Part shown: in pieces, positions 31,830 to 62,500 of the stretch
Layout: each line of letters begins with the position of its first letter
How positions within the stretch are numbered: position 1 is the first letter of the stretch
Assembly: GCA_963815215.1 (NCBI GenBank)
Contig: CAWFFU010000010.1
Location: forward strand, 295,863-359,862
From: an uncultured Trueperaceae bacterium
Lineage (GTDB): Bacteria; Deinococcota; Deinococci; Deinococcales; Trueperaceae
Direction: 5' to 3'
Length of the DNA stretch: 64,000 bases
Made by a program: the position numbers and the translations under genes
Notes under the pieces: model-generated
What the model was told of the DNA's origin: nothing
Database searches by the model: none
What the model saw: the letters and a program-made list of their open reading frames with translations, nothing else

Positions 31830-31905
<76 letters not shown>

Positions 31906-37715: not shown

Positions 37716-37717
37716 CG

Positions 37718-38371
37718 CTACCCGGGTTTCTCGGCGACGGCCGCGATGATACTCGCGCAGATCTCATCGTCCCCGTCTGGCGAAGGCACGGCGACAACGC
37801 CTCGGTCGACCAACTGACGCAATAGGCCCAGAGCGTACGTTGCCTGCCGAGGTGTGAGCGGCCGGCCGCCTTTCCGTCTCGTCGCGAAGCTCTTGAGTGC
37901 AGAGACGTTCTTTGGTGCCTTCCTGCCTGATCGGGGCCAAACCCCGTATTGGTCGGCCTTCTTCGCCGCGACGTGGAATGCCTCGGCGCCAAGGACGGTC
38001 ACGCGCTCCGCTGGGGAGATCCCGACGAGTTCGCGCAGGACCGTACGCACGGACTCGAACGCGGTACTCCGGGGACGGTCCTTGAGCCCATCCAGTGCCT
38101 TCGTGATCTCCTCTGTTGGCACCTGAGATAGCAGCATCCACGTGGTGGTCGGTGGATCGGCCTCAGAAATCAGGTTCAGGCTGTCGTCCTCAAGGGTGTC
38201 TAGCCTGATCGCGGACTCGAACTCCGCTTGGGTCGCAGCCACCGTATCCGCGGCCGCTTCCACGGTGAGGCCGCTCTCATGGAAGGCCTGTCCTACGCTT
38301 CGCACCCAGTCCCCGAGGGGCTGACGGGGAGCAGCCCAGGTCCTCTCGAGCGCACCGCTTTCGTCAGTCAT
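37718..38371 (-). CDS. Hypothetical helical protein, second gene of the GHKL operon
   Basis: Start overlaps the GHKL stop (ATGA) and its stop abuts the helicase start; protein-like composition. Confidence 0.7.
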   Translation of the reverse strand: MTDESGALERTWAAPRQPLGDWVRSVGQAFHESGLTVEAAADTVAATQAEFESAIRLDTLEDDSLNLISEADPPTTTWMLLSQVPTEEITKALDGLKDRPRSTAFESVRTVLRELVGISPAERVTVLGAEAFHVAAKKADQYGVWPRSGRKAPKNVSALKSFATRRKGGRPLTPRQATYALGLLRQLVDRGVVAVPSPDGDDEICASIIAAVAEKPG

Positions 38372-41615: not shown

Positions 41616-42238
41616 TGCCCCCAAACCGCTCTGGCTCCCGATCGTAACCCTTGTGGCGCCTCTGCGAAGACTATGACCGGGCCCGGATGGAGGAGGCCGC
41701 CTGCGACGTGCCGACGCAGGATGGAATGCAGGAATCGTGTGTGTCCGTGATGGTGCTGTCAGACTCCTGTAAGAGCGCGAAGGTTTCGATAGACTCAAGC
41801 GCAAGCGCACGTTTCGTGGCCGGGTCACGCGCTTCCTAGGGGGAAGTAATGGAATGGAACAGCGTCGAGGGTGTGCCAGGATGGCTGGCGCTCCCTTGTG
41901 TACGCATATCTCGATGTCGGGGAGGCTTCGCGGCCTCCTGTACAGCGGAGCGCCCGGGCTGCGAGCCAGTCAGCGTCGACCGGACGCACGGCAATCTGCG
42001 GCATCAAGGGTGGATGGCCGTGGAGTGACCCCGGAGACCGTCCTGGCGGAAGTGGCCCAGAAGCTGAGGACCGAGTACGGTGGGAGCGTACCTCCACATC
42101 TCACGGGTCGGCAGCTTCTTGATCTAGCAGAAACCGTGCTCGGTGGGGACACCCAACTGGACTGCACAGGTACGTCCCTGCGGGCTTACCTTGGATTCCG
42201 GATGCGAGCGTGGTGGGCCGCGTGGTCCCAGGGAGCCC

Positions 42239-42829
42239 ATGTCCCCCGAGGAGATCGAGATCCTTCTAGGCGCCGGTGCGGCTCAGGAGCACTGGCCTCT
42301 CATCGTTGAGATTGAGCGCCAGGTCGCTGGCTCGGGGGGCACCGTGGCCTCGGTCGAGACCCGTGACTACGCCTGCCGGGTGCTCATCGACGTGGGCGAC
42401 TGGCTTCAAGGCGTCGACATCTTCTTCGATCGGAACCGCAGGTACGGTGCAGTCCGGCAGGTGGGCCGATCGCGTGACCCTGAACGAACCTCTGAGTTCC
42501 TCGAGCATGTCGAGAGGGCTGTCGCCGCGTTCGGCGTCAGTGATCCGGAGGAGAGCCAGCTTCCGGAGCATGCGTCTGAGGTCCTCGCATGTGTCGCAAA
42601 GGTTCTCGGTAAGCGTGGCGCACCCATCTGGTTCGCCGGAGCGGACCTCTACACCGTTCGCCTACACCACGATACAGGGCTTGTTGGCTTCTCTAGGAAC
42701 AAGCAGGGGATATGGACCCGTGCATACTTCCAACCAGGTCGCGGAGTTGAGGGCCCACCCCCGGAGCTCGCGGAGGCCATGGGTCAGGTCCTCGCGTGCC
42801 TTCACGACGGCTCCAAGGGGCCCGCGTGA
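42239..42829 (+). CDS. Tandem TBP-like-fold protein (TOTE-type, putative)
   Basis: Two internal helix+beta-meander repeats (VETRDYACRVLID...VDIFFDRNRRY and GADLYTVRLHHD...GFSRNKQGIW); first gene of the operon, next to a TPR/OB protein. Confidence 0.5.
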   Translation: MSPEEIEILLGAGAAQEHWPLIVEIERQVAGSGGTVASVETRDYACRVLIDVGDWLQGVDIFFDRNRRYGAVRQVGRSRDPERTSEFLEHVERAVAAFGVSDPEESQLPEHASEVLACVAKVLGKRGAPIWFAGADLYTVRLHHDTGLVGFSRNKQGIWTRAYFQPGRGVEGPPPELAEAMGQVLACLHDGSKGPA

Positions 42830-44356
42830 TGGGAGGCGTGTCTTCCGAGATCACGGCGCTCCGCAAGAGCGGGAGAACGAACGAGGCCTTAGAGATGGCG
42901 CGCGCGCTGGCCGTGAACGGTAACGTCTCACACGCCGAGCGGATGGCCCACGCCTGGGCGGTCTGGCAGGCGCTCAAGGAAGCCGTCCGGCGGCTGCCTA
43001 ACATCGGGACCGGGAAGCCTTCCGGCGTCTTGCACATCCGTAGGCTCCTGAAGGAGTACGCGGACCTGGATCCGCCGAGAGATGACCTGTGCAATCGGCA
43101 GGTCTTGACCGTACTCCTGAAGGTTGCCCAGGACCTCGACGGGTTCGTCAAGTTCGTCCGATGGTGGGGATCCGCAAGTCGCCCTCGATGCGGACTCCTA
43201 TGCCCCGTTCGTAACGAGCGATGGGAAGACGGTCCCGAGCTTCGCGGAGCGCGTCCAGTCGGCAGTCAGCAAGCACGTTCTCACCCACGCCACGCCCCCG
43301 CGCCGGGAAGACTTGGAGTTCGCACTGTCCTTGACGGAACTTGTCGGGAAACGGACCAAGGGGAAAGGTCGGTTCATCCCCTACTACCGGGGTCGCCTGC
43401 TCGTGGAGTTGGGCGATGTTGACGGTGGCATCGCGAGCCTGCGGAGGTTCACTGGCTCGAACGTCAAGGAGTGGTGGGCATGGCGGACGCTCGCGGAGGC
43501 GTTGTTGGGGAAGGACGCGGATGCGGCCCACAAGGCGGCTGCGAGGGCGGTCGTCCTGTGCCCCGAGGATTTCAAGAGATTGGCGCTCGGCCTATTGGAG
43601 CGAAGCGCTCAGGCCGCCAGGACCGAACTTCCCGATGGGGACGGCCTGCGCGCACTGGCTTCGTCCGCGAGCGAGATACTCTTCGGCGAGCTGCCGTGGG
43701 AACGCGGAGTTGCTGTGCTTCCGTTGCAAAGGAAAGGGCGACGCGACCTAGCCCGGTTCGCTGTCCAACGCGGCGATGAGTGGGTATCGGTCGTGGCGCC
43801 GGGTCTAGAAGAATGCGTGGCCTTCGGAACCGAGGTGGAGCTTAGGGTTGTTCCATCGGGGCGTGGGCCGAAGGCGGTTGCGGTGAGGTTGGCCGAGGTG
43901 GTTGAGGTCGGAAGCGATCAGGGTTTGCCCTGGCGGGTAGGCGTTGTGACTGCCGTCGACGCGGCCCGAGGAACGGTGCAGGTTCAGTACGCGCTGGACG
44001 GCAAGGGCTGGGTGCCTGCGCCAGAAGGGTTCACCCATGACGTAGGCGATGCGGTACGCGTCGTTGTGTCAAGCACGGACCGTGGCCGGGCAGTGGTCGG
44101 GATCGACGAAGCAGTGGCTTGGGAGTACGCAGCAGGAGGTGTGGGGGTCATCCGTACAGAAGGCCCGTTGGAGGTGACTTCCGCCGGCTTCGGTTTCGTC
44201 GACGCCCCCGAGGACCGGGTGTTCGTCCCACCCGATCTCGTTCCGGCGCCGGTGCCGTCCGAGGTGCAGGTTGTGGCGGTGCGCGCGATCGATCGGAAGC
44301 GGGGCGTACCCGGATGGCGAGCGATCGCGTTACACCCGAAGGCAGTGGCGCCATGA
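42829..44356 (+). CDS. TPR + S1/cold-shock-like OB protein (DUF7017/TOTE-like), frameshift near 43169
   Basis: ITALRKSGRTNEA, GKTVPSFAER, PYYRGRLL and KEWWAWRTLAE, then C-terminal GFGFV...VFVPPDLV...RKRGVPGWRAI. Confidence 0.65.
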
Positions 44357-45324
44357 GCTCGCCTACCGAAGCAGTGCCGCTAGAGGATCGCTTGTTCGTT
44401 GCCGGACGCCGGAGATCTGCGTGGCGGCCGCTGCCTCCCTTCGCCAAGGCGGCCACCGCCCTAGGGAGGGAGCTTTGGTCAGGAGCCGTGGCCGGCCAAA
44501 CGAACCTGATCGTACTCGTTGTCCCACAGCGGTCGTTCGTCGCTTGGTTCATCTGTCTCGGCGCGCTCGACGCCTCCCTCAGTGCGTCGGTCGACACCGT
44601 CCCGCAGGAAGTGGAGGTCGGTTCGGGGGTCAAGGTCGTCTTCGAAGGTGGTGTCTATGACGGTGTGTACCTCGGGCTTCACGAGCGAGTCGTGCTGGGG
44701 GAGCACAAGCGCTACCACGATGTGCAGGTGAGGGGGAGCGGCAAGATGATGTTCCCAGAGGGGCAGGCGGAGCTGATCACCGTTTCTCAAGCCGGTGACG
44801 GACCGCGGCTGGGGAGCTTCCGGCCCGCGACGCCCTCCGATCAACTGGCCTTCGCCGCCGCGGCGCTGGGGTTGAAGGACCCCGTACGGTTCGAGGCTGA
44901 GACGGAGGAGGTCGCTGCAGTGATCGGGGTCCGCTCCGCGCTCAGCAGCGAACTGGGGTATGCGGAGCTTTCTGTGAAGGACGGCCCTAACAGACTCAGT
45001 GGATCGCTCAACGACCTCCTTCGTGTTCGCGGGCCGCATTCGACAAGCGGGTGGCGCGTCGACCTACAGACATCGCTCGGCGACGGCGCACCCGGGGGCG
45101 ATGCCCGCCTGCTGGTCATGGATGGCGCGCTTGCGGTCCTACGGCGGGGCTTGGACTTCGACGTGAGGAACCTCGTCGTGCTTGTCGACCCCGTGGACCC
45201 CAGCACGCCGCTTGCCCTGAGTGAGTTGGAGCAACGCGCCGCACTCTCCGAACAGCTCCAGTTGCCCGAGGCCCTTTCGCACCCCGGGTTCGGCGATATC
45301 GAAAGAGCTTGGTTGCGGACATGA
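44353..45324 (+). CDS. Hypothetical protein, possibly N-terminal half of a DrmE-like protein
   Basis: ATGA-coupled on both sides; degenerate alpha/beta fold features (LLVMDG, VVLVD). Confidence 0.6.
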   Translation: MSSPTEAVPLEDRLFVAGRRRSAWRPLPPFAKAATALGRELWSGAVAGQTNLIVLVVPQRSFVAWFICLGALDASLSASVDTVPQEVEVGSGVKVVFEGGVYDGVYLGLHERVVLGEHKRYHDVQVRGSGKMMFPEGQAELITVSQAGDGPRLGSFRPATPSDQLAFAAAALGLKDPVRFEAETEEVAAVIGVRSALSSELGYAELSVKDGPNRLSGSLNDLLRVRGPHSTSGWRVDLQTSLGDGAPGGDARLLVMDGALAVLRRGLDFDVRNLVVLVDPVDPSTPLALSELEQRAALSEQLQLPEALSHPGFGDIERAWLRT

Positions 45325-46871
45325 CCGTGCTCCAGGCCTCGCTGGAGGGGACCGCGCGAGCATGGGATATCGCTCGGACAGCCTCACACGAGATCATCGA
45401 AGTGCCGTACCCGCTGTTGGATGTGGTCAAGGACCGCTTGGTTCGACTACTGAAGCTGCACCCGGACAGAGGCTCCGTCTCCTACGAGGTCCTCGCCGTT
45501 CTGCGACGGTATCGGTTCCGGTCGAACGTGGTGCCGGCTGCTCCCGGCTCCCCGTTGCTCTGGGGTTCAGAGACCGTCACACTGGCACTACCGCAATTGG
45601 CGAACCTTGCCGCCGAGGGTATCGGAGAGAGTGGTGCCTGGGCGGAGCTTCTAGACGCTGTCACCGACCTCCGATCGCAGAATGGGGCTTCACCTATGTG
45701 GGCTGAGCTACTGAACCGTTGGCCCACGGTGCCGCGCCCGGCTGCTCTCGTGGTGCAGCGTCACCGCGATGTCGCGGTGGTGGAGGCGCTTGCCTCCAGC
45801 CTCCCTGGGAATCCGGTGGTGGTGGCGCCCCCCGAGCTCGCGCACACATGGGACCGCGAGGTGCTAGTGGTGTTCGGTCCACCCAGGGCATACCCAGATT
45901 GGGTGTTCAACGTGCCGCGCGGTGACACCTTGTGGCTTCGGTACTCCTCCGCTAGTGACCGTCCGCCATCCCCCTCCTACCTCTCGTTCTCGGAACGAGG
46001 TCGAGACCGCACGCAGAGGACCGTCTTGTACGCCGGTCACGCGCCAGGAATCGCGCGTCCAACGGATGACCTGCCGGACGACATCGAGGACATCCTCAGG
46101 CCCACGCTCGATTGGGGGAAGGTCGCGAGGGTCAAGCAGAGCCGGCTCTCCCTTTCGGAGGAGGATGCCGAGGACGTCGTTCCGGCCATGGCGGTGATCT
46201 TCGATGGCGACGTCCCTGTCTTCCTTTCAGCCGAGCCTGGTGCTAGCGTTACGGTTCTGGACGTTGATTCTGCTGACGTGACGCACGAGAAGACCGATCG
46301 ATTGCGGCCTGGCATGTACGTCGTGCTGCGGACCCAGGGTGGCGGGGACTTCGTTCGAGAGGTCGCCGACAGGTTGCTTGGGGAGCGGGCGCGACCGCTG
46401 AGAGAGGACATCGAAGGCTGGAAACGTGACCTGCGGGCTCGACTGCGGCAGATCGGAACGCAGCCGTTCACGGACCAACTGCGGGAACAGGGCGTCGAAG
46501 TAGATCCGCAGACGGTGCGATCGTGGTCCAGGGATCACGTTATGGCACCGGGTTCCCTACAGCGGTTCAGGAGCGTGATGGTGGCGCTCGGTCGGACGGA
46601 TGTCGAAGAACGATGGGTGGTGATCGGCCGGGTGCGCGCTGCCCATCGTAGCGCCGGTCACCGTGTGCGCCAGATGCTGCTGGCTGAAGTGCGGAAGACG
46701 GACATCTCCGAGTTGCGCCGCTCGGCACGGATTGCATTCAGCTTGGAGGGTGAGCAGGGGGGGACGCTCACGGCCTTCCGGATCGAGGAGATTCCTGGGG
46801 TGTCGTTGGAAGTCCCAAGATCGCTTCTGAACCATTGGGATGAAGGAGAGGAGTCACCGTGGCCCGCATGA
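45321..46871 (+). CDS. DrmE-like protein (C-terminal half)
   Basis: VIFDG...LRPGMYVVLR...DFVREVAD...WKRDL...TVRSW...RAAHRSAG pattern and position upstream of drmA/drmB. Confidence 0.55.
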   Translation: MTVLQASLEGTARAWDIARTASHEIIEVPYPLLDVVKDRLVRLLKLHPDRGSVSYEVLAVLRRYRFRSNVVPAAPGSPLLWGSETVTLALPQLANLAAEGIGESGAWAELLDAVTDLRSQNGASPMWAELLNRWPTVPRPAALVVQRHRDVAVVEALASSLPGNPVVVAPPELAHTWDREVLVVFGPPRAYPDWVFNVPRGDTLWLRYSSASDRPPSPSYLSFSERGRDRTQRTVLYAGHAPGIARPTDDLPDDIEDILRPTLDWGKVARVKQSRLSLSEEDAEDVVPAMAVIFDGDVPVFLSAEPGASVTVLDVDSADVTHEKTDRLRPGMYVVLRTQGGGDFVREVADRLLGERARPLREDIEGWKRDLRARLRQIGTQPFTDQLREQGVEVDPQTVRSWSRDHVMAPGSLQRFRSVMVALGRTDVEERWVVIGRVRAAHRSAGHRVRQMLLAEVRKTDISELRRSARIAFSLEGEQGGTLTAFRIEEIPGVSLEVPRSLLNHWDEGEESPWPA

Positions 46872-48602
46872 TTCCACCGGTGTTCGACGAGACCATCACG
46901 GTCTCGCCCGGTGAGCGGAAGTTGTTCCGGATGTTGGAGTTGAGCCCCGAAACGGAAGGCTGGGTGGTGTTGCATTCCCAGCGCATCGCCCGCCCGAAGA
47001 GCAAGGAGCGGGGCGAGGCGGACTTCGTGGTGATGATCCCAGGCCTGGGCGTACTGGTTCTAGAGGTCAAGGCACATCACCACATCGCACGAAGGGAGGG
47101 TCGGTGGCTGTTCGGCGGTGACGCCAGTCCGGGTAAGGACCCGTTCGTCCAGGCGGAGGTCGCGATGCGCGCGCTGAAGGGCTCGGTCGACAAGGGCTTA
47201 CAGGGAAGTGGGCGCAGGGTCTTGTTCGCGGACGCGGTGGTGTTCACGCACGTCGACCAGATTCCGTCGGTTGATGAGTGGAAACAGCGTCAAGTCATCG
47301 ACGCGCGGTCTGTGACAGCAGAGAAGCTCGCTTCGGCGTTGAGACGGAGCCTGGAGTCAGCCGCGAGTGAACTCCGTCATACACACGGGTTGACCGGGTG
47401 GACGTTCGATGATGACGACATCGAGGGTGTGCTGCGGGTGTTGCGCCCGGAGTTCGATGTGACGTTGTCGCCAGCTGGCCGCCGAGCGCAGCTGCAGGAC
47501 GACCTGATTCGCTTCACCAACGAGCAGTTCGGGGCGCTCGACGCTACGAGCCTGAACCACCGTGTCGTGTTCGAAGGTCCGGCGGGGACGGGCAAGACGC
47601 TTCTGGCCGTCGAGGCAGCGAAACGGGCATTGGATGCCGGCCGTCGCGTCCTGTTGACGTGTCACAACGCTGCGCTCGCGGACCACCTGAAGTCCGTGCT
47701 ATCGGACCGGCTGGCGTCGGGCCGATTGACGGTCGGGACCCTGCACCGCGTCCTGATGTCTTTGACCGGGTCCGAGCCGCCCGAGCACGACGAACAGGCT
47801 TTCTTCGGCCGCGAGCTTCCGGAGGCCGCGCTAGAGGTGCTCCTCGAGGCAAGGGAGGATGCGGCCGCTCGAGGGTTCCTCTTCGATACGGTGATCGTCG
47901 ACGAACTACAGGATTTGGCCCAGGAGCCGTTCCTGGTCCTTTTCCCTGAGTTCCTGACTTCGGAGGATGGGACGCTCTTCGCCTTCGGCGACCTCGATAA
48001 CCAGGCGATCTTCCAGCACGAGGATGCTGAAATCCTTCGGGAGCGGATCTACGATTGCCTCGGGAAACCGGCTGGGTACAGGTTGCTCACGAACTGCCGC
48101 AACACACCACGGGTCGTGAGTTGGGTCACCGGGCTGGTAGACGTAACCCCTGCGTACAGCGGGATCCGGCGGCCGGATGACGGGGCCGATCCTGAGCTCG
48201 TGGTGGTGCCGGAGGAGGACCAGCCTGCGCAGCTCGTGAAGGTTCTCGATTCCCTGCTCGCAAGCGGCTACCGGGCCGAGGAAGATCGTGGTCTTGTCCG
48301 TAGTGAGTGACCAACACAGCCTCGCCCGGCGTGTCGAGGCGCCCAACTGGCGGAACCGCCTCCGACCGCTTGCGAGAGCCTCAACGGGGGTCGTCGGGTA
48401 CACCAGTGTCTACCGGTTCAAAGGCCTCGAGAGCCGCGTGGTCGTTCTCACCGATGTGGCCGGCATCGATGGCGAGAATCGGGAGGCTCTATACGTGGGA
48501 CTGACCCGCGCAGTTGAAACGATCGTGATCATGACATCGCCTGCTGTGGTGCCTTTCATGCTCGCCAGGCTGCGTCGGGCCCACGCTGGGGTCGCTGCAT
48601 GA
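46859..48602 (+). CDS. NERD nuclease - superfamily 1 helicase fusion (frameshift near 48285)
   Basis: GE..LF, VLHS, EADFVV...VLEVK; GPAGTGKT, IVDELQD, NCRN, then RFKGLE and LYVGLTRA in the next frame. Confidence 0.88.
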
Positions 48603-51600
48603 GCCCTGACCGGGGTGTGCGGGCACGTCGCACCATGCTCGCCGGCATACGGCGCGAGATGCTGGGACCCGCAGGTTGCGGCCACGCTCTCAACATCACC
48701 ACAGGGGTCACGCATGCGGAGGACGCGTATCTCCCTTTCGTGGATGCGGAAACCGGAGAGGAAGTGCTCACGGTCGAATTTCCGCTTCAGCGGTACGGCC
48801 TGGGCGTTCTCTTCCCGAAGGAGGAGGCCGACCTAGGATCGCGACCGTAGGTGAACAGCCCGAAGGTGAGGTTGAGACCCCTGAGGCGACGGAAGAATTC
48901 GGGACGGACGAAGGCGTATCCGAGAAGGCCGATCAGGGCTTGACAGCGATGGGCAATCACGTTGGGGGTAGGTCTGAGCCCGGGGAAGATGACCTTCCAG
49001 ATCTGGTCGATACCGCAAGGAGGCGCCCATCCAGCATGGCGGTGAGCTTCCGCTTGCGACGCGGCGCGGATTGCCTGATTCGAGCCGTGTTGCCAGAGCG
49101 GGAGCCGGGGACGCCTTTCCCCGTCAACGGGCGGTACCGCCCGTTCGAAGCTGAGGCGGCGAAGAACGGGAACGGCCGCCATTTCAAGTGGTGGGTTCGG
49201 CGTCAACTGTCAGGGGCCGACACCTTCCGCGTTCCTGCGTCCCTCGCGGTCGGGGAGCGGGTTCCACTGGAGTCGGTGGAACGTGTGCGGCAGGGTGATA
49301 CCGACGGGCTCGACGTCCGGTTCCACGCTTTCGCTCGGCGCTTCCCGGGTGGCGAGCCCGGCGACCTGATCCTCAACGGTCGTGCTCTCGAACCATACGC
49401 CGTCGGGTGGCGGACTGCGGGACGCGGGATGCCTTTTCCAGTCGTACTTCGAAGTGGACGTTGCCGAGGACGGGGGCACCGAGTTCGCGGCCCTTCCCGG
49501 AACGGCCGCCTCGGATTCTACAGGCGAGTCGCTCCGCTTGATCTACAGGGAGGCACGAACGTTCGCGGTGGGCCACGGGTGTGCGGCAGATTGGCGCAGC
49601 GATCGGAGTTCCGTCAAAGCGGTGATCGCGACGAGCTTCCCCGGGTTCGAGGTGGGGAGCATGACGCCAGATCTCCGGGACGATGTCGGAGAGCCACTGA
49701 CCGTTCCGATGGGAGAGCTGGCGGGGCTGGTCACGAGTCCCGACCAGTTCGCACAGCTCGATCGGGTCGTCGAGAGCTACGGAGCCTGGATCCGTGGCCT
49801 GGAGCTTGAAGCGGCGTCGTTGGATGAGACTGAGCGAGTGCAGGCGAAGCTCCACATCGAGCGGGCGCGCGAGGCGGAGGTTCGGATGCGGGAGGGTATC
49901 GACCTTCTCCGAACCGACCCGCAGGTCCGAAGGGCCTTCGAGCTCGCGAACCATGCGATGCTTCTACAGCAGGTCCAGACGAACAAGGAGCCACGCTCGG
50001 TGACCGTCGGGAGGGGGGCGCCGAATTTCACCCCACCCTACGCAGCGCCGAACGTAGCGGTGCCGCCACGCGGCCGCGGGAACTGGCGACCGTTCCAGAT
50101 CGGTTTCCTCCTCGCATCGCTGGCATCAACGGGATTCCGCGATCACGAGGACCGCGAGCTCGTGGATCTGATTTGGTTCCCTACCGGGGGCGGCAAGACG
50201 GAGGCCTACCTCGGTCTCACGGCCTTCTCGGCCTTCCTGCGGCGAATCAGGGCGCCTGGCGATTCGGGTACGGACACGTTGATGCGCTACACCTTGCGCC
50301 TTCTGACAGCGCAGCAGTACGAACGAGCTGCGGCCTTGATTTGCTCCATGGATGTCATCAGGATGGATCGTGTCGATGAGCTCGGGAGCGCACCGTTCTC
50401 GATCGGGCTCTGGGTGGGTGGCGGCACGACCAGCAACAACTGGACGGACGCCAAGTCGGCGCTGAGGAAGCTCGCCGATCCCAAGCGAAGGCGGTCGGCC
50501 CCGAACCCATTCCTTGTCACCCGGTGTCCATGGTGCGGCTGTGAGATGGGACCGCGCGCTCATCGGCCGTACGTACTCGGCTACCACCTCGAGCAGAACA
50601 AGAGGGTCGTGTTCCGTTGCCCTGACCCGGCGTGTCCTTTCCACGAGGGGCTACCACTCCACGTGGTCGACGAGGACCTCTACGAGAGCCGACCAACCCT
50701 GGTGATCGGGACGGTCGACAAGTTCGCCCGGTTGAGCTGGTCAGAACGGCCGCGCTCGTTGTTCGGCCTCGGTGAGGATGGCCACCGGGAGTTGCCTCCA
50801 CCCAACCTCATCATCCAGGACGAACTCCACCTCATCTCTGGTCCGCTGGGCACCATGGTCGGGCACTTCGAGGTCCTCGTGGAGCGCCTGTGTCAGGGAG
50901 GGACGGGCGGCGACCGGAAGCCGAAGATTGTGTGCTCGACCGCCACCGTCCGGAACTACGAGGATCAGATTCGCTGGCTGTTCGGGCGGCCACGATCGCG
51001 CGTCTTCCCTCCGCCTGGAGTGGACGTGGATGACAGCTTCTTCGGTATTCGAGCTAGGAGCGCAGACGGGCGGCCGGCCCCCGGTCGCCTCTACGTGGGC
51101 CTGTACGCTCCCGTCCTCGGGTCCCACATGAACGTGCAAATCCGGGCTTACGCGGCCGTCCTGCAAGCGGCGATGGGGTTGCCTGAGCGAGAGCGTGACG
51201 CGTACTGGACTTTGATGGGCTTCTTCAACTCGCTGCGCGACCTCGGCTCCACGACCACCCTGCTACGCGACCAAATCCAGGGGCATCTCACCATCATGTG
51301 GACGCGGGCTGGGCTCCGAAGAGAGGACCGCCGTGACGCGAGACGAACGATCCACGAGGTCATCGAGCTGACGAGCCGGCTGCGCAGCGAGGAGGTCCCA
51401 GCCGCGCTTGCGCGCCTCTCCACTCCCTACGAAGGCGAGAAGTCCACGGCGGTCGACACGTGTCTAGCGTCAAGCATGATCGAGGTTGGCATCGATGTCG
51501 AGCGGCTCGGCCTCATGGTCGTGACGGGCCAGCCGAAGACGACCTCACAGTACATCCAAGTGACGGGCCGCGTAGGTAGGCGCTGGTGGGACCGACCAGG

Positions 51601-52123
51601 GCTGGTGGTTGTTGTGTACGCGCCTTCACGAGCGCGCGATCGGTCCGTCTTCGAGGGATTCCGTGCCTTCCACGAGCGTCTCTACGCCGCCGTCGAGCCA
51701 ACGAGCGTCACGCCCTTCGCGCTGCCAACCCTGAATCGTGCGATGCATGGTGTACTGGTCGGATACGCAAGGCAACTCCTCGATACCCGGGAACTGGCCA
51801 GCCCGACCGACGTCAACCTGGACGACTTGCATGAGTTCCTGGAGGTGCTCCGGGAACGGTCAAGAGTCGTCGATCCTGGCGCCGAGGAGATGGTCGCGGA
51901 CCAGTTCGACAAGCTCCTGAGGCAGTGGGAACTCCGTGCGCCCACGCGCTGGGAGAACTGGCAAGACCCTGACGATTCCAACGTCCTCCAGGTGAGCGCA
52001 TCGAGCGCGGCGGGGCGCGAGCGCGAAGGTGGGCCCTGGCGCACCCCGAACTCCATGCGGAACGTGGATGCGGAGTGCGTCATCGATACCCGGATCGCGC
52101 AGGACATCGAGGCGGCCAGCTGA
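48599..52123 (+). CDS. DISARM DrmA-like SF2 helicase (frameshifts near 48838 and 49374)
   Basis: WRPFQ, LIWFPTGGGKTEAY, RYTLRLLTAQQ, CPWCG, IIQDELHLISGPLG and GQPKTTSQYIQVTGRVGR. Confidence 0.88.
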
Positions 52124-53975
52124 TGTTCAGCCAAGACAGCATCAGGAGGGGCCACCTGATTTACGGCGCAGGGGTGGGGGGCCTGACGGTCCTCAAGAAC
52201 GGTACATCGGTCATCTGCGCAGGACTCGACTATTGGTTCAAAGACCGAGATGGCCGCGTGAGCGACACGGTTAACTCCAACGAGCTCGACGAGTGGCGCT
52301 TGAAGGCTCGCTTGCGAGTGCGCTCCCTCCGGCAGCCTCCAGCCCCAACCGAGACCATCGGCAACGAGTCCAAGGGGCCGGCGAACAGTGTCGTCGTTCC
52401 GTTCCTGCGATTCCCGCAGTGGCACGTCTGCCCCCGCTGCAGGAGCCTGGAGTTCGTTCAGGAGCCGGAGCGCCGATGCCGCCGAGTGCTCGCGCTGCAG
52501 GGCCAAGAACAAACACAAGAGCTTCCTGATCCAGGTTCCAATCGTGACGGCTTGTAAGGCGGGACACCTCGACGAGTTCCCCTGGCAGGCGTGGATCGGA
52601 TGTCAGTGCGAAACGCCCCGGATGACGTTGAAGCAGAGCGGTGGCGCGGGGCTAGCCAACTTCAAGGTGCGATGCGATTCCTGCGGGAAGGTCAAGGGGC
52701 TGCGGGGAGCCCTTGGCGAGGACAGCCTCGGCGTTTGCCATGGTGAACGCCCCTGGCTCCTGGGAGCTGAGCAGGAGGCATGTGATGAGTCGCTACAGGG
52801 TGTCCTCCGGAATTCGTCGAACACGTACTTCCCCGATGTGGTGTCGTCCGTGTACGTCCCCCCGGACGCTTCCGGCGCCCCGCCGAAACTCGTCGAGCAC
52901 CTGATGAGCGAAGACTTCTCGATGACGCTAGGAATTCTGAGGCAGCTGCCTGAGCCACAGCGTCTCGAAACCCTGATCCAGTACGGTGACGGGTTCGTCC
53001 GGGACCACTCGCGGGAACAAGTCGATGCGGCGATGAAGCTGGTGCTTGCGGACCGTGAGGTGGCGTCGGTCGCTGCCTCCAGCGAGGTCGATTACCGCCA
53101 ACGCGAGTACGACATCCTGAGGTCGACGGTGGTACACGAGCGGCTCCGAGTTCGTGTCGCCCCGAGCGAGAACTACGAAGCCGCTGTCCGCACCTCAGGC
53201 ATCGCAGCCATCTCCTTGGTCGACCAGCTCGTGGTGACGAAGGCACTCGCTGGCTTCAGCAGGGTGCTCCCCAGAGCGTACAGCGGAGGCGACGAGGGCG
53301 CCCGGCTGCTCTGGAAAGAACTACCTCAACGCAAGCATCGATGGCTCCCAGCTGTCCAGGTCCGGGGCGAGGGCATCCTCATCACCTTGGAAGAGAGCCG
53401 TCTGCATGCTTGGGAAGCGCGCGACAGCGTTCGGACCCGCTACGCGACCGTGATCGGCAGCGCGGAGGAGGCTCGCTTCGCACCCCACCAGATCGCGGAG
53501 TTCTCACCGCGCCTGTTCCTACTCCACACGCTTTCGCATCTGGTCGATCAACCGACTCGTGTTCCACGCCGGCTACTCGGCCGCATCCCTCGCGGAGCGC
53601 ATCTACTGCCGTCAACCGGGCGGTGACGTCGCACCGATGGCGGGTGTACTGATCTACACGGCGGCCGGTGATGCGGACGGAACGCTCGGCGGGCTCGTCA
53701 GGCTCGGAGAGCCGGCGGTTCTGGAAGGAGTGCTCCGAGATGCGGTGGATACGGCCAGGTGGTGCAGCAACGATCCCGTATGCATGGAGGTCGGCAGGCA
53801 GGGACCGGACGGCTTGAATTTGGCCGCGTGCCACGCCTGTGCGCATGTTCCAGAGACGGCTTGTGAGGCCTTCAACGTCATGATGGACCGAGGCGCCGTG
53901 GTGGGAACCCTAGAAGACCCCACACTCGGCTTCTTCTCAGGCACGCCGCTGCTGGAGGGTGTGAAGCATGCATGA
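52123..53975 (+). CDS. DISARM DrmB-like DUF1998 protein (frameshifts near 52470 and 53546)
   Basis: CKAGHLDEFPW, LLHTLSHL, YSAASLAERIY, GTLGGL, CSNDPVC and ACHACAHVPETACE. Confidence 0.88.
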
Positions 53976-54718
53976 TCGGCGGACAGGTGCGGGACCATCG
54001 CGGTCGTGAGCGTGTCGCGTTCCTCAGGCGAACCCTCGTGCGGGAGGGGCGAACCCACGATGGTACCTACCCCTGGCATCGCACCACGAACCCGTACCTC
54101 ATCCTCATCGCTGAGCTCCTGCTGAAGAGGACCAAGAGGGTCGTCGTTGCTCGCGTCTTCGACGTGTTCGCCGGAGCGTACCCTACGGCCGCAGACCTCG
54201 CCGCAGCTGACCCCGATGCGCTCTACGAGCGTATCCGACCGGTCGGATTGGCGCGCCGCACGAAGCGCTTGCCGCAAGTCGGCGCAGCTATCGTCGCTAA
54301 CGGGGGAGTACCCTCGGATCGGATTGCGCTGCTCCGATTCCCTGAGGTGGGAGCCTACGTTGCGGATGCCACCCGTCTCTACGCGTTCTCCGAGCCGTGC
54401 TTCCCTTTGGACCGGAACGCCCAGCGCGTCCTACGCCGTTCCATCGACGGGTGCCATCCCGATCGAACGGTGGACCCTTACGAGGATGCCCACGTGGTCG
54501 AGGCGGTGGTCAACCTGACCGCCGGCGCGTCGGTCGGAAAGGTGCGGGCGTTGCACCAAGGTCTCCTCTCCGTGGCTTGGAGTCACTGCGGTCCGCGTCC
54601 GCGGTGCTCCGGTTGTCCGCTACGTTCGGCTTGCTGGTGGGCGCTGGAGTCCAGTGCAGCCCACGAGGCCGGTGATGGGCCGGACGAAGGATCAACCAAC
54701 GTGGAGGGGGGCCCATGA
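53972..54718 (+). CDS. HhH-GPD DNA glycosylase, Mig (T:G mismatch)-like, with Fe-S cluster motif
   Basis: YPW..TTNPYLILIAELLLKRT, HhH LLRFPEVGAY, LDRN and C-terminal CGPRPRCSGCPLRSAC. Confidence 0.8.
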   Translation: MIGGQVRDHRGRERVAFLRRTLVREGRTHDGTYPWHRTTNPYLILIAELLLKRTKRVVVARVFDVFAGAYPTAADLAAADPDALYERIRPVGLARRTKRLPQVGAAIVANGGVPSDRIALLRFPEVGAYVADATRLYAFSEPCFPLDRNAQRVLRRSIDGCHPDRTVDPYEDAHVVEAVVNLTAGASVGKVRALHQGLLSVAWSHCGPRPRCSGCPLRSACWWALESSAAHEAGDGPDEGSTNVEGGP

Positions 54719-56125
54719 CCAACCTCCCGTACAATCCGAGCGACGCGACCGACATCCTCCGCTATGCGCGCAGGCTCGATCGGGCGCACGCTCCGACAGG
54801 TCCTTGGGGACGAGGTTGCCAACCATGGCATCGCCGGCAAGGGTAGGTTCGGCCAGGTTCTCGAGACGCGCTACTTCCGGTACCCGCTGAACTCCGAGAG
54901 TCGCCCGGACTTCGCTGACGCAGGGCTGGAGCTAAAAGCCACAGGCTTGGTGCCTGATGGCCACGGAAGTTGGAAAGCCAAGGAGAGGGTGAAGCTCAAC
55001 GCCATCAACTTCCACGAGGTGAGCAGCGAGGATTTCTGGTCGAGCACCTTCCTCCGGAAGAACCTCAGCATCCTGCTTATCTGCTACGCGTACGAGAAGG
55101 GTCAGTTGGCGGTCGACAACATGGTGGAGCTCGTGGACAACTGGCGGATTCCCGAGCAGGACCTCATCCAGATCGAACGTGAGTGGAACCTCATCGTCGA
55201 TCTAGTCCGCGAAGGCCGAGCTCACGAGCTTTCCGAGAGCCTGACGAACTACATCGGTGCTTGCACCACCGGCCAAGGTGGGGGTCGCGATCTCCAGGAG
55301 CAGCCGTGCTCGGATGTGCTCGCGAAGAGGAGGGCGTTCTCCTTCAAGCAACCCTACGTTACGCGCATCGTCAGGGAGTTCGTCGCACGGGAGGACCGTC
55401 GTCGCGCGAAGGTGCGTGGGGGATCGTTGGTCACGAGTCTCGACGAGTTGCGGGAAGCGGGATCGATCGAACATCTGGCCCTCCGCAGGTTCGAACCGCA
55501 CCTCGGCAGGACCGAAGCTGACATCACGAGGGAATTCGGCATACGGGTCCCGCACAGCAAGAACCGGCGGGAGACTCTGAACTTGGCCATCCTGGGTGTA
55601 CGGGGCACGAGGAGGGTCGACGAGTTCGACAAGGCAGGCATCACCATGCGCTCGTTCACATTGCGGATGGGCACTCGGCTCCCCAAGGAAGACTTCCCAC
55701 TCCCGGCGTTCGAGTTCTCCGACCTGAGCGATGAACGATGGGGGACGTCAGCGCTGCGAACGCACCTGCTGAATCGCTTCCTGACCGTCTTCTACATGCT
55801 CGACGGAACCGGCACCTACACCCTGAAGGATGCCGTGTTCTGGGCGTTCCCCGAGTCCGAGCTCGACGGAGCAGTCCGCGAGACCTGGGTGAGGACGGTT
55901 CGGCTGGTCCGTCAAGGGCGCATCGATGGGCTCCCGAAAGCGGCGGACACGCACCTTGTGTTCCTCCGGACCCACGGGCGGGACAGCAGGGACACATCAC
56001 GCTTGCCGGACGGGAGAGCGTTCCCCAGAGTATCGTTCTGGCTCTACCGGGCCTACCTGAAGCGGGTGTTCGAAGATGTAGGCACATACCCAATCCGGGC
56101 GAGCGCGATCCAAGGCGCCAGGTAG
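54715..56125 (+). CDS. Sau3AI/MutH-family restriction endonuclease (frameshift near 54778)
   Basis: KGRFGQVLE, NSESRPDF...GLELKAT, AHELSESLTNYIGACT and RAFSFK, plus a second MutH-like domain; ATG at 54715 overlaps the upstream stop. Confidence 0.88.
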
Positions 56126-56136
56126 AATGACCACCT

Positions 56137-57438
56137 ATGGGTCACCGGGTGGATATCAGGGTAGCCGAACTCTTCGCCGGTGTGGGAGGGTTCCGCCTTG
56201 GTCTTGAACGGGCGAGCATGAACGGTGCCCGTGTAGATTTCCGCGTGGTTTGGAGCAACCAGTGGGAGCCATCCACCAAGAAGCAGCATGCGTCGGACCT
56301 TTACGTGTCCCGCTTCGGACCGGAGGGCCACGCGAACGTTGATATCAAGAATGTCGAAGCAGCGGACATCCCCGACCACGATCTTCTGGTGGGGGGCTTC
56401 CCGTGCCAGGACTACTCGGTCGCTCGAACGCTGAACCAGGCCGCTGGCCTTGTCGGCAAGAAGGGCGTTCTCTGGTGGGAGATTCATCGTGTCCTCAAGG
56501 AGAAGGGTGAGGCAAGGGCCAGCTTCCTTCTGCTTGAGAACGTCGATCGCCTCCTGAAGTCTCCCGCGACCCAACGTGGCCGCGACTTCGCCATCATGCT
56601 CGCTTCCCTCCTGGATCTTGGCTACGTTGTCGAGTGGCGGGTCATCAACGCCGCGGACTACGGGATGCCACAACGTAGACGCAGGGTGTTCGTCCTCGCG
56701 TACCTGGGGCGGAGTGGTCCCGGGGGGTCAGCTCTGGGAACGGAGCCGGCCGAGTGGGTGTTGGACGCTGGGCCACTCGCGCGGGCCTTCCCCGTCCAGG
56801 CCGAGCAGGGGCTGCCGCTGCCGATCGAAATCGAAGGCGATCTCGCACAAGTCTCCGACGGCTTCAACGTTGGCAGCCGGGCCTCACCCTTCCAGAACGC
56901 GGGCATCGCGATGCGGTCGGGGGACAAGCGGCTCGTGTGGACGCTCAAGGGTCGGCCATCGTACGAGGGCGAGAGAACGACACTGGGCGATGTACTCGTG
57001 CCGGAACAGGATGTGCCGGCCTCGTTCTTCCTCCGTGAGAATGAACTCGAGCAGTGGACGTTCCTCAAAGGAGCGAAGTCGCTGGAGAGAACCAGCCGCA
57101 GCAGCGGTCATCGGTATCGCTACACGGAGGGAGGGATGGCCTTCCCGGAACCCCTCGATCGCGCTTCGCGGACCGTCGTAACGGGAGAGGGTGGCAGGTC
57201 TCCATCGCGGTTCAAGCACGTGGTGAAGACCCCCACCGGTAGGTATAGGCGTCTCACGCCTGTGGAGCTTGAGCGGTTGAACATGTTCCCCGATGAGCAC
57301 ACGGCTGGGGTGAGCCAGGTCAGGAGGGCATTCCTGATGGGGAACGCGCTCGTAGTGGGTGTCGTGGAGGCTATCGCCACGGAACTGGGTGTGGTCGTGA
57401 ACGAGACGTCCAGGGAAGTCGCCGGCGCCCGCGGCTGA
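56137..57438 (+). CDS. C5 cytosine DNA methyltransferase, M.Sau3AI-like (GATC)
   Basis: [43 protein letters not shown] and MGNAL motifs. Confidence 0.93.
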
Positions 57439-57448
57439 AGAGACTTGC

Positions 57449-58372
57449 ATGGATCGTTCCCGGGGCGCACTGCTTGGACTCGCGGTCGGCGATGCGTTGG
57501 GGACGACGCTGGAGTTCAAGGAGACGGGAACGCTCGCGCCCATCCGCGACATGGTGGGCGGCGGTCCCTTCGGATTGTGGCCGGGTCAGTGGACCGACGA
57601 CACCAGCATGGCGCTCTGCCTGGTCGAGAGTCTTGTCGAGAAGCAGGGTTTCGACCCTCGCGATCAGATGGAACGCTACGTCCGGTGGTGGAAGGAAGGG
57701 CACTGGAGCAGTACGGGACGGTGCTTCGACATCGGGGTGACGACGCGGGCGGCGTTGCAGCGCTCCATCGACACGGGGGAGCCGTTCGCGGGCTCGACGG
57801 ATCCTCGTACTGCTGGGAACGGGTCGTTGATGCGGCTCGCTCCGGTGCCGATAGCCTTCGCCACCGAGCCTCAGCGGGCGATGGACCTGGCGGGGGAGAG
57901 TTCTAGGACTACGCATGGGGCGCGGACCTGCATCGACGCCTGTCGGTACTTCGGCGGTCTGATCGTGGGTGCCCTCGAAGACCGACCGAAGGCCGAGTTG
58001 CTGGCGCGAAGGTTCAGCCCGGTCGATGGCTACTGGACTGCGCATCCGTTGGATCCGCTGATCGACGAAGTGGCGTCGGGGTCGTTCAAGTGCAGGGAGC
58101 CTCCGGAGATTGTCGGGAGTGGCTGGGTGGTCCGGTCCCTGGAGGCGGCGCCCTACGCGTTCGCGAGCACGTCATCGTTCGAGGAAGGTGCGCTTCGAGC
58201 GGTCAACCTCGGGAACGATGCGGACACGACGGGTGCCATCTACGGCCAGATAGGTGGCGCCTACTACGGTGCCGACGCCATTCCCGAGCGATGGCGAGAC
58301 CGGATCGCTTCGCTTCACGCCATCGAAGGGTTCGCGGACAGACTCCTCGAGCTGGCTCGCTCGCCCGGCTGA
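57449..58372 (+). CDS. ADP-ribosylglycohydrolase (DraG/ARH family)
   Basis: GDALG, WTDDT, GNGSLMR, THG and [10 protein letters not shown] motifs. Confidence 0.93.
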
Positions 58373-58516
58373 GCGGCCGCCGCCTTCGTGCCGAAGATCG
58401 AAGAGGCTTGTTGATCGTATGGCTCCGTTTCGGCTGCGCTGCTACTGCACAGCGGCCCGCTGGAGGTACGGCGTACCATGCGGCGTACACGTTGCCGGTG
58501 GAGATGGGGGCGCGGG

Positions 58517-59644
58517 GTGGTCGTTGTCACGTGGAATCTCGGCCGTAGCCATCATGGAGCCCAGATGCAGTTCGTCCGGAGCCTGTCTCCCGACGTTGTG
58601 GCGTTCCAGGAGGTTAGCGCTGCAGCGGTTCAGCAGATCACGCGTGCGCTCGCTGATGCGGGACTGAGGTACGTCGTGTCGACTGTTGGCGACGATCGAA
58701 GCTACCCGTTCGTGCTCGTCACGGGAGCCAGGTGGCCGGTGAGGGTCGGCAACACGTCCGCTGCATCGCTTCCGTTCCCCGAGCGCGTGCTCGTCACAGA
58801 AGTGGACGCCCCAACGGGAGGCGTTGAGCTGGTGAACGTGCATGTGCCGCCGGCGACCTCGAGCGGAGTCGCGACCAAGATCGCGACCTTCGAAGGGCTG
58901 AAGCAGCTATTGTCCCAGCCGACGGACCGGCCGCGCATCGTGTGCGGCGACTTCAACACCCCGAAGGCCGAAAGCGCATCTGGTCAGGTGGTGTTCTGGG
59001 GGGATCAGCGCCAGGTCCAGGCGGAGCGCGACATCATCCTCGGGTTGCCCGAGGTTGGGCTTGCCGATGTGTTCCGATCGCTTCACGGGTACGGAGAGAA
59101 GGCGGTCTCCTGGCGTGCAAGCAACGGGACTGGACGCCGCTACGACCACGTCTTCGCTGCCGCGGAATTGCCTGCCTCCGACGCGCGCTACGAAGACCTC
59201 GACGAGATTGCCGCGCAACGTCTCGGTGACCACGCCCCTCTCCGCGTGGTGTTCGATGACCTTTCGACTAAGAGCGCTGCGCCTCAGCGCAGCGTGATGG
59301 AAGGCCCCAAAATGGCGTCCTCCGAGCCGCGCGCCGTTCGCCGGAAAGGACCTGCTATGGAACCTGATGGTCACGAGCCTCTTCGGTCATTCCTGACACG
59401 TCTCGACTTTCTGCACGATGTTCGGCAGTTGCCGGACGACGCCCGGCGCGGGCAGTTCTTCCGGGGGTGGCGCCGAGCGGTGACTGGACCAGCCTATGCG
59501 CGGAGCACGCTTCGCCGGCTCACCTGGAACAACCTCGGATATCGAGCCGGCATGGAGTTCGGCCCGGCATCACACGAGCGGATCGATGAGGCGTTCGAGA
59601 GCCTCGCGCGGATCTATTCGGTCGACGGCCCACTGCGTTCCTAG
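58517..59644 (+). CDS. Endonuclease/exonuclease/phosphatase (EEP) protein with an unknown C-terminal domain
   Basis: TWN, DVVAFQEV, NVHVP, CGDFN, YDH and GDHAP motifs; start uncertain. Confidence 0.85.
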   Translation: MVVVTWNLGRSHHGAQMQFVRSLSPDVVAFQEVSAAAVQQITRALADAGLRYVVSTVGDDRSYPFVLVTGARWPVRVGNTSAASLPFPERVLVTEVDAPTGGVELVNVHVPPATSSGVATKIATFEGLKQLLSQPTDRPRIVCGDFNTPKAESASGQVVFWGDQRQVQAERDIILGLPEVGLADVFRSLHGYGEKAVSWRASNGTGRRYDHVFAAAELPASDARYEDLDEIAAQRLGDHAPLRVVFDDLSTKSAAPQRSVMEGPKMASSEPRAVRRKGPAMEPDGHEPLRSFLTRLDFLHDVRQLPDDARRGQFFRGWRRAVTGPAYARSTLRRLTWNNLGYRAGMEFGPASHERIDEAFESLARIYSVDGPLRS

Positions 59645-59755
59645 GGCGTTTGCATCCTCGAAGGCGAATTGGGGCGCGCGAGAGGTTGTGGATTCACCGG
59701 CGGCCCAACGACTTGGAGTAGAAGGTATGCCGGTGCGTTCAACGTGTGCTGAGCT

Positions 59756-60946
59756 TCAACCCATCAGACGAGCCTTGGCCGCCTGGAACTCTTCGTCGGT
59801 GAGGATGCCCCGCTCGTGAAGCTCCGTGAGCATGTCCAACTCCCGCGCCGCCGACGAGCGGGGCTGAGACACAGTGCCGCCAGTCCCCTCTTCAACGAAG
59901 GTGAAGCGGTCCCGGTAGAGCTTCTGGAAGAAGTACCGGACGGGGTCCAGACGCGTTGACTTCACGGCGAAGTTGAGTTGGTACGTGCGACTGGGGGCGC
60001 GCGCTTCGATCGTGAGGACGGCGCTTCCGATCGCCTCGGACCGTTCGAGGCCGCTCATGCCGGCCACGCCGGCGCTCAGTCGGCCGAACAAGCGCACGCC
60101 CACGAACCCCCCATCGAGGCTGGCTTGTTCGTCCAGGACGGCGGCGCGCGCGTTCTCGCGGATGGATACCGCGTTGACGATGTCGTGACGGAGGTGGACG
60201 GCGTGGCCGTCCCCGTAGCCAGTCCTGAACACCCAGGTGGGTTCGATCCGGATAACCAGGCCCGTGCCTACGTCGTCAAAGCGAACCTGGCGGTTCGAAA
60301 GCTCCGTATAGGCGCGGTCCTTCGTATTCTCGCGCTCCAGCCAGCCCTCGAAGGCCGGGATGCCGCTCAGGTACGTCACGGCGGCCACCGTCTTCGGGCC
60401 ATTCTCCACGCCGTTCAGGACCATGGGTCCGTACAGCACGGTGAGCTCTTCTTTGGTGGAGAACTGCTCAAGCTCTACGGGCGCCGTGTTGCGCCGGCGA
60501 ACTGGCTCCTCGAGCAGGGCGATGAGTGCGCTACGAAGGTGTTGTCGACGTGCTTCGATCTCGCCGGGGTCGACACTGTCGAGCCGGTAGGCGGGAAAGG
60601 AGCGCATCCGTGCGAGCAGTCTCGCTACACGCGGCCAAGCCGCGGCGTCCACGACAAGCGTGATGCTTCCTTGCTGCGCGGCACCTCCGGGCACCTGCTG
60701 GATCGTGAGCTCGATGCCGGCCGCAGTCTGCTTCTTCAGGACGGATGTGAGCTTGCGGAGGGCGATGGCTTGGCCACTGGCGGTAAATCCTCCAGCTTGG
60801 ACGATCAGGAGATGCGTGGACGTCAGCGCCAGACCGCGACCCACACTTGTGGGAGCTTCAACATGGATAGGCCCTAGACCTTCTCTGGCCAAGAGGCGGT
60901 TCACCTGGATATCGAGACCGCTTGGAAGCCAACTGCGCCAACGCAT
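59756..60946 (-). CDS. SHOCT-domain protein with putative PH-like beta domains
   Basis: C-terminal ELDMLTELHERGILTDEEFQAAKARL is a SHOCT signature; AGGAGG RBS before ATG at 60946. Confidence 0.75.
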   Translation of the reverse strand: MRWRSWLPSGLDIQVNRLLAREGLGPIHVEAPTSVGRGLALTSTHLLIVQAGGFTASGQAIALRKLTSVLKKQTAAGIELTIQQVPGGAAQQGSITLVVDAAAWPRVARLLARMRSFPAYRLDSVDPGEIEARRQHLRSALIALLEEPVRRRNTAPVELEQFSTKEELTVLYGPMVLNGVENGPKTVAAVTYLSGIPAFEGWLERENTKDRAYTELSNRQVRFDDVGTGLVIRIEPTWVFRTGYGDGHAVHLRHDIVNAVSIRENARAAVLDEQASLDGGFVGVRLFGRLSAGVAGMSGLERSEAIGSAVLTIEARAPSRTYQLNFAVKSTRLDPVRYFFQKLYRDRFTFVEEGTGGTVSQPRSSAARELDMLTELHERGILTDEEFQAAKARLMG

Positions 60947-61339
60947 CGTTACCGTGCCTCCTGACGCGCGCATTCGCGCAGGAGCCCCTTCAGCGTCTGG
61001 GCCGGTTCCGGAACTGCTTGCAGCCAGCGTACTGCGCGGCTGGAGCGCATCCCGTGACCGCAGCCGAGCGCACCTACGTGGTCTATGCGCTCGCGGCTGG
61101 CGAAGCGTTGGAACCTTCTCTTCAGGGGCGAGGCTCCAAGAAGTAGTTCAGCCATGGTGTGTTGCGTCGCTCTTGTGCCTCGCCCATCCCGTAGAACTGG
61201 TCGAGATGGATGCGAAGGAACGAGCTGTGACGATCGTCTGACGAACGGACGTCCTGGACAATGATGCGGGATTGTCCAGGACGGTGCAGGAAAACGCCAA
61301 GCGTCTTCACGCAATAGGGGGTGTCTTCAATCGGCGCGC

Positions 61340-62482: not shown

Positions 62483-62500
62483 CGCCTACCTCCTGCCACT

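Follow-up and report, generated by a model that had tools for sequence, protein, structure and literature searches.

A variant of class 2-like DISARM with a putative split DrmE and an interchangeable methylation slot in a Trueperaceae defence island

The window analysed here is a stretch of 64,000 nucleotides that forms the terminal part of a contig (C10) of an uncultured Trueperaceae bacterium (genome of 3.3 Mb, 97% complete), and the subject of this work is a run of eleven genes on its + strand, from approximately 41854 to 58372 (about 16.5 kb; Table 1). The preliminary description, made from the sequence alone, had proposed a hybrid defence operon of eleven co-oriented genes joined by overlapping start and stop codons or by gaps of about 10 bp, and this layout is confirmed. 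Stop and start codons overlap as TGATG at 42829 and 52123 and as ATGA at 44353, 45321, 46868 (missed previously), 48599, 53972 and 54715, giving eight overlap junctions, while at the last two junctions gaps of 11 and 10 bp precede the methylase and the ADP-ribosylhydrolase, respectively. Promoter and terminator scans performed no better than chance level. The operon lies inside an island of low G+C (0.62-0.65, down from approximately 0.72), whose left edge is near 31-32 kb, where a tRNA-Ala gene stands. Family labels were taken from searches of Pfam, PADLOC, NCBIfam and PDB, which bear out those given previously, except that the TBP label of gene 1 turned out to be weak.

Table 1. Features of the eleven-gene operon and the left edge of its island (window positions; aa, amino acids; SF1 and SF2, helicase superfamilies 1 and 2)
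Feature	Position	Strand	Length (aa)	Support and sequence errors
tRNA-Ala(GGC)	31830..31905	+		left edge of the low-GC island holding the operon
Gene 1, weak TBP-TOTE / PDC-M16A-like	41854..42829	+	~324 if start 41854 is correct	error at 42196 (indel in two runs)
TPR + S1/CSD protein, TOTE type	42829..44356	+	508	PF22707 48.6 bits (cut-off 27), DUF7017, PDC-M16B; error at 43166
Gene A, putative N-terminal half of DrmE	44353..45324	+		predicted RecA1-like fold without Walker A/B; CarD/Tudor-like insert, residues 86-144
Gene E, putative C-terminal half of DrmE	45321..46871	+		predicted SF2 RecA2 domain with helical insert, then DrmE_C region
NERD nuclease-SF1 helicase fusion	46868..48602	+	577	PF08378 (over cut-off), PF13538; error at 48282
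DrmA-like SF2 helicase	48599..52123	+	1174	PADLOC DrmA 3e-200; errors near 48835 and at 49374
DrmB (DUF1998/MZB)	52123..53975	+	616	NF038324 on three pieces, PF09369; errors at 52459 and 53545
Mig-like T:G mismatch glycosylase (HhH-GPD, four C-terminal cysteines)	53972..54718	+		1kea E 9e-22 vs MutY 3e-13
Sau3AI-family restriction endonuclease	54715..56125	+	469	NF040973 341.7 bits (cut-off 300); break near 54776
C5 cytosine methyltransferase, predicted GATC	56137..57438	+		PADLOC MTase_II 492 bits vs DrmMII 122
ADP-ribosylglycohydrolase	57449..58372	+		PF03747 E 1e-77; not conserved at this place

The conserved core of the operon consists of genes A, E, drmA and drmB, often with a NERD-SF1 gene between E and drmA (A-E-(NERD-SF1)-DrmA-DrmB), and has no DrmC. 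This core was found in four named phyla and in 19 metagenome clusters. With a DrmA query, at E 1e-50, matches were obtained in 20 of 364 Deinococcota genomes (a tally that includes one unpublished genome) and in 0 of the 9 genomes of the same genus; flanks were examined for 11 of the 20, and the core order is kept in the genomes G277, G263, G320, G038 and G069. The core was also present in all five plasmid records examined (of 70), which come from Nostoc, Rhodococcus, two Bacillus and Priestia. On the plasmid of Bacillus toyonensis (L061:9951-17905) the order is drmA-drmB-A-E, and since A and E lie behind drmB there, drmA, drmB, A and E travel together in either order. From a DrmB alignment search with 577 metagenome loci, the 80 best were used, together with 5 viral ones; 81 of these loci had a DrmB match and fall into 58 clusters, in 19 of which A and E are split, in 9 fused (850-890 aa) and in 30 untyped. 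A quick tree built on 42 DrmB rows, with long branches among its four outgroup rows, places the 29 split rows on one side of a branch with an SH-aLRT of 98 and shows G277 as the sister of the window. Gene order is thus conserved for the five-gene core, which recurs in other genomes, and not for the full set of eleven genes; the eleven-gene array seems to be one genome's assembly of modules.

Sequence comparison points to genes A and E as the separated halves of one distant homologue of the DrmE family. All nine fused proteins (9/9) exceed the DrmE family cut-off, with 367-757 bits. Gene E itself matches PF24957 (E 2e-5) and NF038316 (40 bits, under the cut-off of 80), and NF038323 had no match in the operon. 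In hhalign, A aligned to the N-terminal half of the fused NF038316 proteins (96.4%, E 1e-9, 221 columns) and E to their C-terminal half (99.7%), while shuffles of A reached at most 0.08% and crossed and shuffled pairings at most 0.3%. Given that A and E align to the matching halves and that the controls remain this low, the previous proposal of a DrmE-like part split in two appears to be right. Homologue searches with A alone and E alone returned 1 and 2 proteins, and a search for longer fused A-E forms of 1037-2960 aa returned none, the fused forms having been found through their loci.

The AlphaFold2 (AF2) model of gene A (pLDDT 65) has a RecA1-like fold (VIA Z 7-8), with an inserted barrel that resembles CarD and Tudor domains (Z 7.3, root-mean-square deviation (rmsd) 2.2, 56 aligned), and that of gene E (pLDDT 76) resembles domain 2 of eIF4A in its first part, up to residue 258 (VIA Z 10.3, rmsd 3.0, 119 aligned). 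One fused DrmE-family protein matches the Mfd model at residues 82-159 (E 1.5e-6). Neither a Walker A motif (GxGK[ST]) nor a DExD/H motif was found in 37 rows of gene A or in 11 fused N-terminal halves. Because the folds are RecA1- and RecA2-like and both motifs are absent, the prediction for DrmE is an SF2 helicase that has lost catalysis and carries a CarD/Tudor-like insert. The function of DrmE is described as unknown, and its loss abolishes class 2 protection (10.1101/2021.12.28.474362).

The NERD-SF1 gene, already noted in front of drmA, proved to be a regular member of the branch. Its motifs (GE.DF, EVK, GxAGxGKT, DExQD and NCRN) are kept over 27 rows, and it is found, with motifs intact, in 17 of the 19 split and 5 of the 9 fused metagenome and viral clusters. 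The DrmA of the window reaches 819 bits with NF038325 on a 913-aa piece, the cut-off of 950 being for the whole protein, and is of the short type, with NF038325 outscoring NF038326. It matches the DISARM DrmA structure 7s9v with E 8e-137, against 2e-4 for YprA/MrfA. In Serratia, a trigger loop keeps DrmAB closed, and the DNA onto which DrmAB loads carries a 5' overhang (PMC9142583). One DrmA of the split clade aligns to the end of this loop and has a variable acidic stretch there, and in the DrmA of the window an acidic N-terminal loop stands at the same place, its position being taken from the homologue at L111. The reported absence of drmC holds, as Pfam and PADLOC detected no phospholipase D (PLD) gene within the operon. 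In the 45 clusters with at least 1.5 kb downstream of drmB, no PLD domain was detected in 150 of the 151 open reading frames (ORFs) that occupy the first four places behind drmB. DrmC has been described as dispensable and often missing (PMC9142583).

The slot behind drmB is conserved and its content is interchangeable. A C5 methylase occupies it in 26 of the 45 clusters (10 of the 15 split ones, with an N6 enzyme in one more), and a Vsr or HhH-GPD glycosylase accompanies 12 of these 26. Restriction partners in the slot include AspBHI/Mrr, Eco47II, FokI-like, MvaI/BcnI, SacI and McrBC types, and in R. opacus the slot holds Vsr, NaeI and HNH. Fusions of a HhH-GPD glycosylase with a C5 methylase stand behind drmB at L128/L135:12240-14048 and L119:1526-3448, and L156 carries a methylase-Vsr fusion. 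An AspBHI/Mrr-type methylation-dependent nuclease lies beside the C5 methylase of this slot at L136, L135, L169 and L166.

In the window the slot is filled by a Sau3AI-type restriction-modification (R-M) pair with a Mig glycosylase. This composition, already noted previously, is supported by the matches in Table 1 and by that of the endonuclease, which has a PD...ELK motif, to 4pxg (E 2e-49). No PF00145 gene other than this methylase was found in the genome; searches for D12 and for N6/N4 enzymes returned one match each, the former below cut-off and the latter at the end of a 597-aa frame. Sau3AI was found in 0 of 85 metagenome and viral loci and in 5 of 364 Deinococcota genomes, always with Mig and the methylase. 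The trio stands behind drmB in the genome of the window (G000) and in G277. It cannot be kept as a fixed member of the system, as was initially thought, being one of many slot cassettes and standing alone in three of the five Trueperaceae genomes that have it. Three Trueperaceae genomes carry the Mig-Sau3AI-methylase trio free-standing (L183, L184 and L185), and in two of them the endonuclease is inverted.

Eight one-base frameshifts interrupt six of the operon genes. The extra base is absent from short-read contigs at six of the eight breaks (42196, 43166, 48282, 49374, 52459 and 53545), and the two others, near 48835 and 54776, are not confirmed by these contigs, which come from four public short-read runs (one contig per run, depth 2.3-5.3) and are maybe not independent of the source of the assembly. 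The six breaks with short-read correction are assembly errors. Reading through the frameshifts, a repair that had been recommended at the outset, restores proteins of 324, 508, 577, 1174, 616 and 469 aa, of homologue-like length and with no internal stops. Given this restoration and the absence of six breaks from the short-read contigs, the locus is most likely intact.

Of the six confirmed errors, four fall within or next to GATC, compared with a background of 2.6% (p 7e-6; best of 256 tetramers), five are within 3 bases of GATC, and the two unconfirmed breaks are also at GATC. The PLD-SNF2 gene of the island (within 34710-39894, - strand) has two frameshifts, the first at GATC near 37300 and the second in a stretch that also holds GATC; in this left part of the island the pattern rests on one break placed by profile ends. 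Methylation can give rise to motif-specific indels in sequencing. The clustering suggests that GATC is modified in the cells that carry the island, and hints at an active methylase. Indel errors of long reads, and shifts of their signal at methylated GATC, have been described in a source where indels at GATC are not demonstrated (PMC8495745). This reading is weakened by the core genes of a genome of the same genus, where only 2 of 14 frameshifts in 299 kb (298 proteins) are near GATC; frameshift density is 0.47 per 10 kb in these core genes and about ten times higher in the operon. A mixed population, in which only some cells have the island, would reconcile the clustering of errors at GATC in the operon with its absence in the core genes. 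Over the whole genome of the window CTAG is strongly avoided (ratio 0.34) and GATC barely so (ratio 0.94), as expected if the GATC system is a recent arrival.

The locus is read here, with somewhat better than even confidence, as a five-gene DISARM class 2-like core for phage defence, with an interchangeable methylation cassette and with TOTE-like and ADP-ribosylhydrolase genes as neighbours. By analogy with Serratia, the trigger loop would keep DrmAB closed until the complex meets DNA that is unmethylated and has a 5' single-stranded end. The pair of A and E, as a predicted dead SF2 helicase, may act as a DNA-binding clamp or scaffold, and NERD-SF1 would follow and degrade the unwound DNA in place of the usual nuclease. 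The methylase would mark host GATC as self, and Mig would repair the T:G pairs that arise from 5-methylcytosine (5mC). Sau3AI cleavage leaves a 5' GATC overhang; the Sau3AI-type enzyme would cut unmethylated GATC independently, and its cuts may create the 5' overhangs where DrmAB loads.

Several observations weigh against this reading. NERD-SF1 is absent in 6 of the 10 split loci from genomes and plasmids (G277, G038, Nostoc, two Bacillus and Priestia) and so cannot be the sole cutting route, and the PLD-SNF2 gene, on the opposite strand 4-7 kb away, could supply PLD activity. No C5 methylase was found in the four ORFs behind drmB in 19 of the 45 clusters, and G263 and G320 have no methylase beside the core. 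For the dead helicase, the fold matches of gene A are middling (Z 7-8, pLDDT 65, best Foldseek E 8e-4), and Foldseek gave no match for gene E at E 0.001.

The methylase counts also bear on an alternative to which a minor, though appreciable, chance is given, namely that the core and the R-M trio defend independently of each other and merely share an island, the core reading DNA structure only and ignoring GATC methylation. The cores of G263 and G320 would fit this, as would the trios of G282, G249 and G280 (the last at a contig end), genomes in which DrmA has no match. The endonuclease of the window is also nearer to the free-standing ones (59-60%) than to the drmB-docked one of G277 (39%), and class 1 DISARM tolerates methylase loss (10.1101/2021.12.28.474362). 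Nonetheless, the frequency of a C5 methylase after drmB, with partners that vary, the ATGA overlaps that join drmB, mig and the endonuclease gene, and the presence of the same trio in the same slot of the sister lineage G277 all speak for a connection, and in class 2 the loss of DrmMII is deleterious (10.1101/2021.12.28.474362). The reading as a DISARM-like core with an interchangeable methylation cassette is preferred.

The first two genes raise the question of whether the eleven genes work together as a single system, the counterpart of TALON on the DISARM side, with the TBP-like and TPR-S1 proteins as sensors of infection that activate the helicase-nuclease core. The frame of gene 1 is open from 41854, so that its start is probably upstream of 42239. 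Its match to PF22721 is weak (E 0.043, 13.9 bits against a cut-off of 27), although it is the best and only one in the genome (E 0.18), and its C-terminal part matches PADLOC PDC-M16A (E 5e-5). Pfam and PADLOC searches detected no effector domain in gene 1, and the ESM Atlas gave nothing over 0.8 for it. Judging from its sequence, the TPR-S1 protein is a true TOTE-type protein; among the best matches its closest relatives are at most 34% identical and share its architecture, and no genomic context for them was found in metagenome, viral or plasmid collections. The overlapping stop and start codons that join gene 1, TPR-S1 and gene A, the similar G+C of all eleven genes (0.62-0.67) and the combination of the same four functions in TALON (10.1101/2025.09.15.676423) would fit an integrated system. 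However, PF22707 exceeds its cut-off in 1 of 364 Deinococcota genomes, that of the window, and a TPR-S1 profile built on 82 relatives recovers the window and 0 of 114 related loci, 38 of which bear gene A with at least 298 bp upstream (12 independent ones with at least 1.3 kb). The pair is absent from the sister locus L001, and an ADP-ribosylhydrolase profile also finds 0 of the 114 loci. The initial view of all eleven genes as one conserved system finds no support in these counts, and an integrated system is improbable. The TOTE-like pair and the hydrolase are likely island neighbours by chance, and the tight junctions and the likeness to TALON may leave room for a functional link to the core.

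The surrounding defence island extends over at least 32 kb, from the tRNA-Ala gene to the contig end. To the left of the operon, the segment 34710-39894 (-) holds a GHKL/MORC ATPase, a small gene and the PLD-SNF2 helicase (PADLOC PbeA/PLD_Helicase); to its right, further island genes at 58478-63504 are an EEP nuclease, a SHOCT protein, a 380-aa protein of unknown type and a WYL/WCX regulator.

That the core is a DNA repair module, with a MrfAB-like helicase, a glycosylase and an ADP-ribose eraser, and not a defence, is very improbable. YprA/MrfA helicases function in repair, and Mig and the hydrolase are repair-type enzymes, but the match of DrmA to its DISARM counterpart is far closer than that to YprA/MrfA, DrmA matches are patchy in their spread and borne on islands and plasmids, and the neighbours are restriction genes. 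A decaying pseudogene cluster, which eight frameshifts in 16.5 kb and their excess over core genes might suggest, is hardly credible, given that six of them are absent from the short-read contigs and that no in-frame stops appear after read-through.

The way in which DISARM destroys DNA and the role of DrmE are treated as open questions in the literature, and this branch offers direct tests of both. The class 2-like core described here supplies a candidate nuclease and a predicted fold for DrmE, that of a dead helicase whose two halves can be separated. Its natural variants, which differ in their methylases or lack one, could show whether the core reads the methyl mark. A more far-reaching proposal, unlikely as a whole, is that DrmE is a dead SF2 helicase, split here, whose CarD/Mfd-like domain couples DISARM to RNA polymerase on phage DNA, that NERD-SF1 is the missing nuclease of DISARM, that any type II methylation cassette can be inserted to set the self mark, and that the TOTE pair was captured, a TALON-like design being reached independently.

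Among known systems, Mig.MthI (PDB 1kea) is the best solved relative of the glycosylase. EILLRRT-like, G-x-Y and Asp positions and the four cysteines align, which we take to be the functional residues of Mig.MthI, and the activity of the window's enzyme is predicted. The endonuclease and methylase resemble the type II R-M systems Sau3AI and DpnIII in pairing a MutH-like endonuclease with a C5 methylase; DpnIII is 34% identical to Sau3AI and cleaves GATC, in which its partner methylase forms 5mC (PMC4471560). Unlike these systems, the pair of the window is joined to Mig and docked behind drmB, and its specificity is predicted. Azaca was considered as the identity of the core and rejected, since it is described with DUF6361, PLD and SF2 parts (10.1101/2025.07.10.664194).

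TOTE, in the composition given by Bell et al. (TPR + OB, TBP, effector), is represented in the window by TPR and OB, with a weak TBP. TALON consists of TPR-CSD, TBP, a NERD nuclease and a YprA helicase (10.1101/2025.09.15.676423). The window shares with it TPR-CSD (PF22707), NERD (PF08378) and a YprA-family helicase, the TBP match being sub-cut-off. As described there, the helicase of TALON is in one piece, ARMADA-like and with a dead RNase H tail, whereas DrmA and DrmB of the window are separate DISARM-type genes; moreover, NERD is fused to SF1 in the window and its TOTE pair is not conserved. Many uncharacterised DISARM-like classes have been reported (Bell et al. 2025, 10.1101/2025.09.15.676423), and two DrmA proteins, from L001 and from the Nostoc plasmid, are placed in a 'DISARM-like helicase' class in Table S1 of that work. 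Its main text mentions no DrmE, Sau3A or MutH, and NERD once, for TALON only. Full-text literature searches found no description of the operon, although the variant may already be included in subscription papers or among the DefenseFinder models.

The closest comparison is with class 2 DISARM, which comprises drmE-drmA-drmB-drmC-drmMII (PMC9252829, PMC9142583, 10.1101/2021.12.28.474362). The anti-phage activity of this class depends on drmA, drmB and drmE. Both have a short-type DrmA, a separate DrmB, a DrmE-related protein in front and a C5 methylase behind. The window differs in having no DrmC, which places it outside the class although it would work like DISARM, in having a putative DrmE in two genes with a NERD-SF1 gene inserted, and in its methylase, which is of type II and is accompanied by an endonuclease and a glycosylase of its own. 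The locus is a widespread, unnamed variant of class 2-like DISARM to which further modules have been added.

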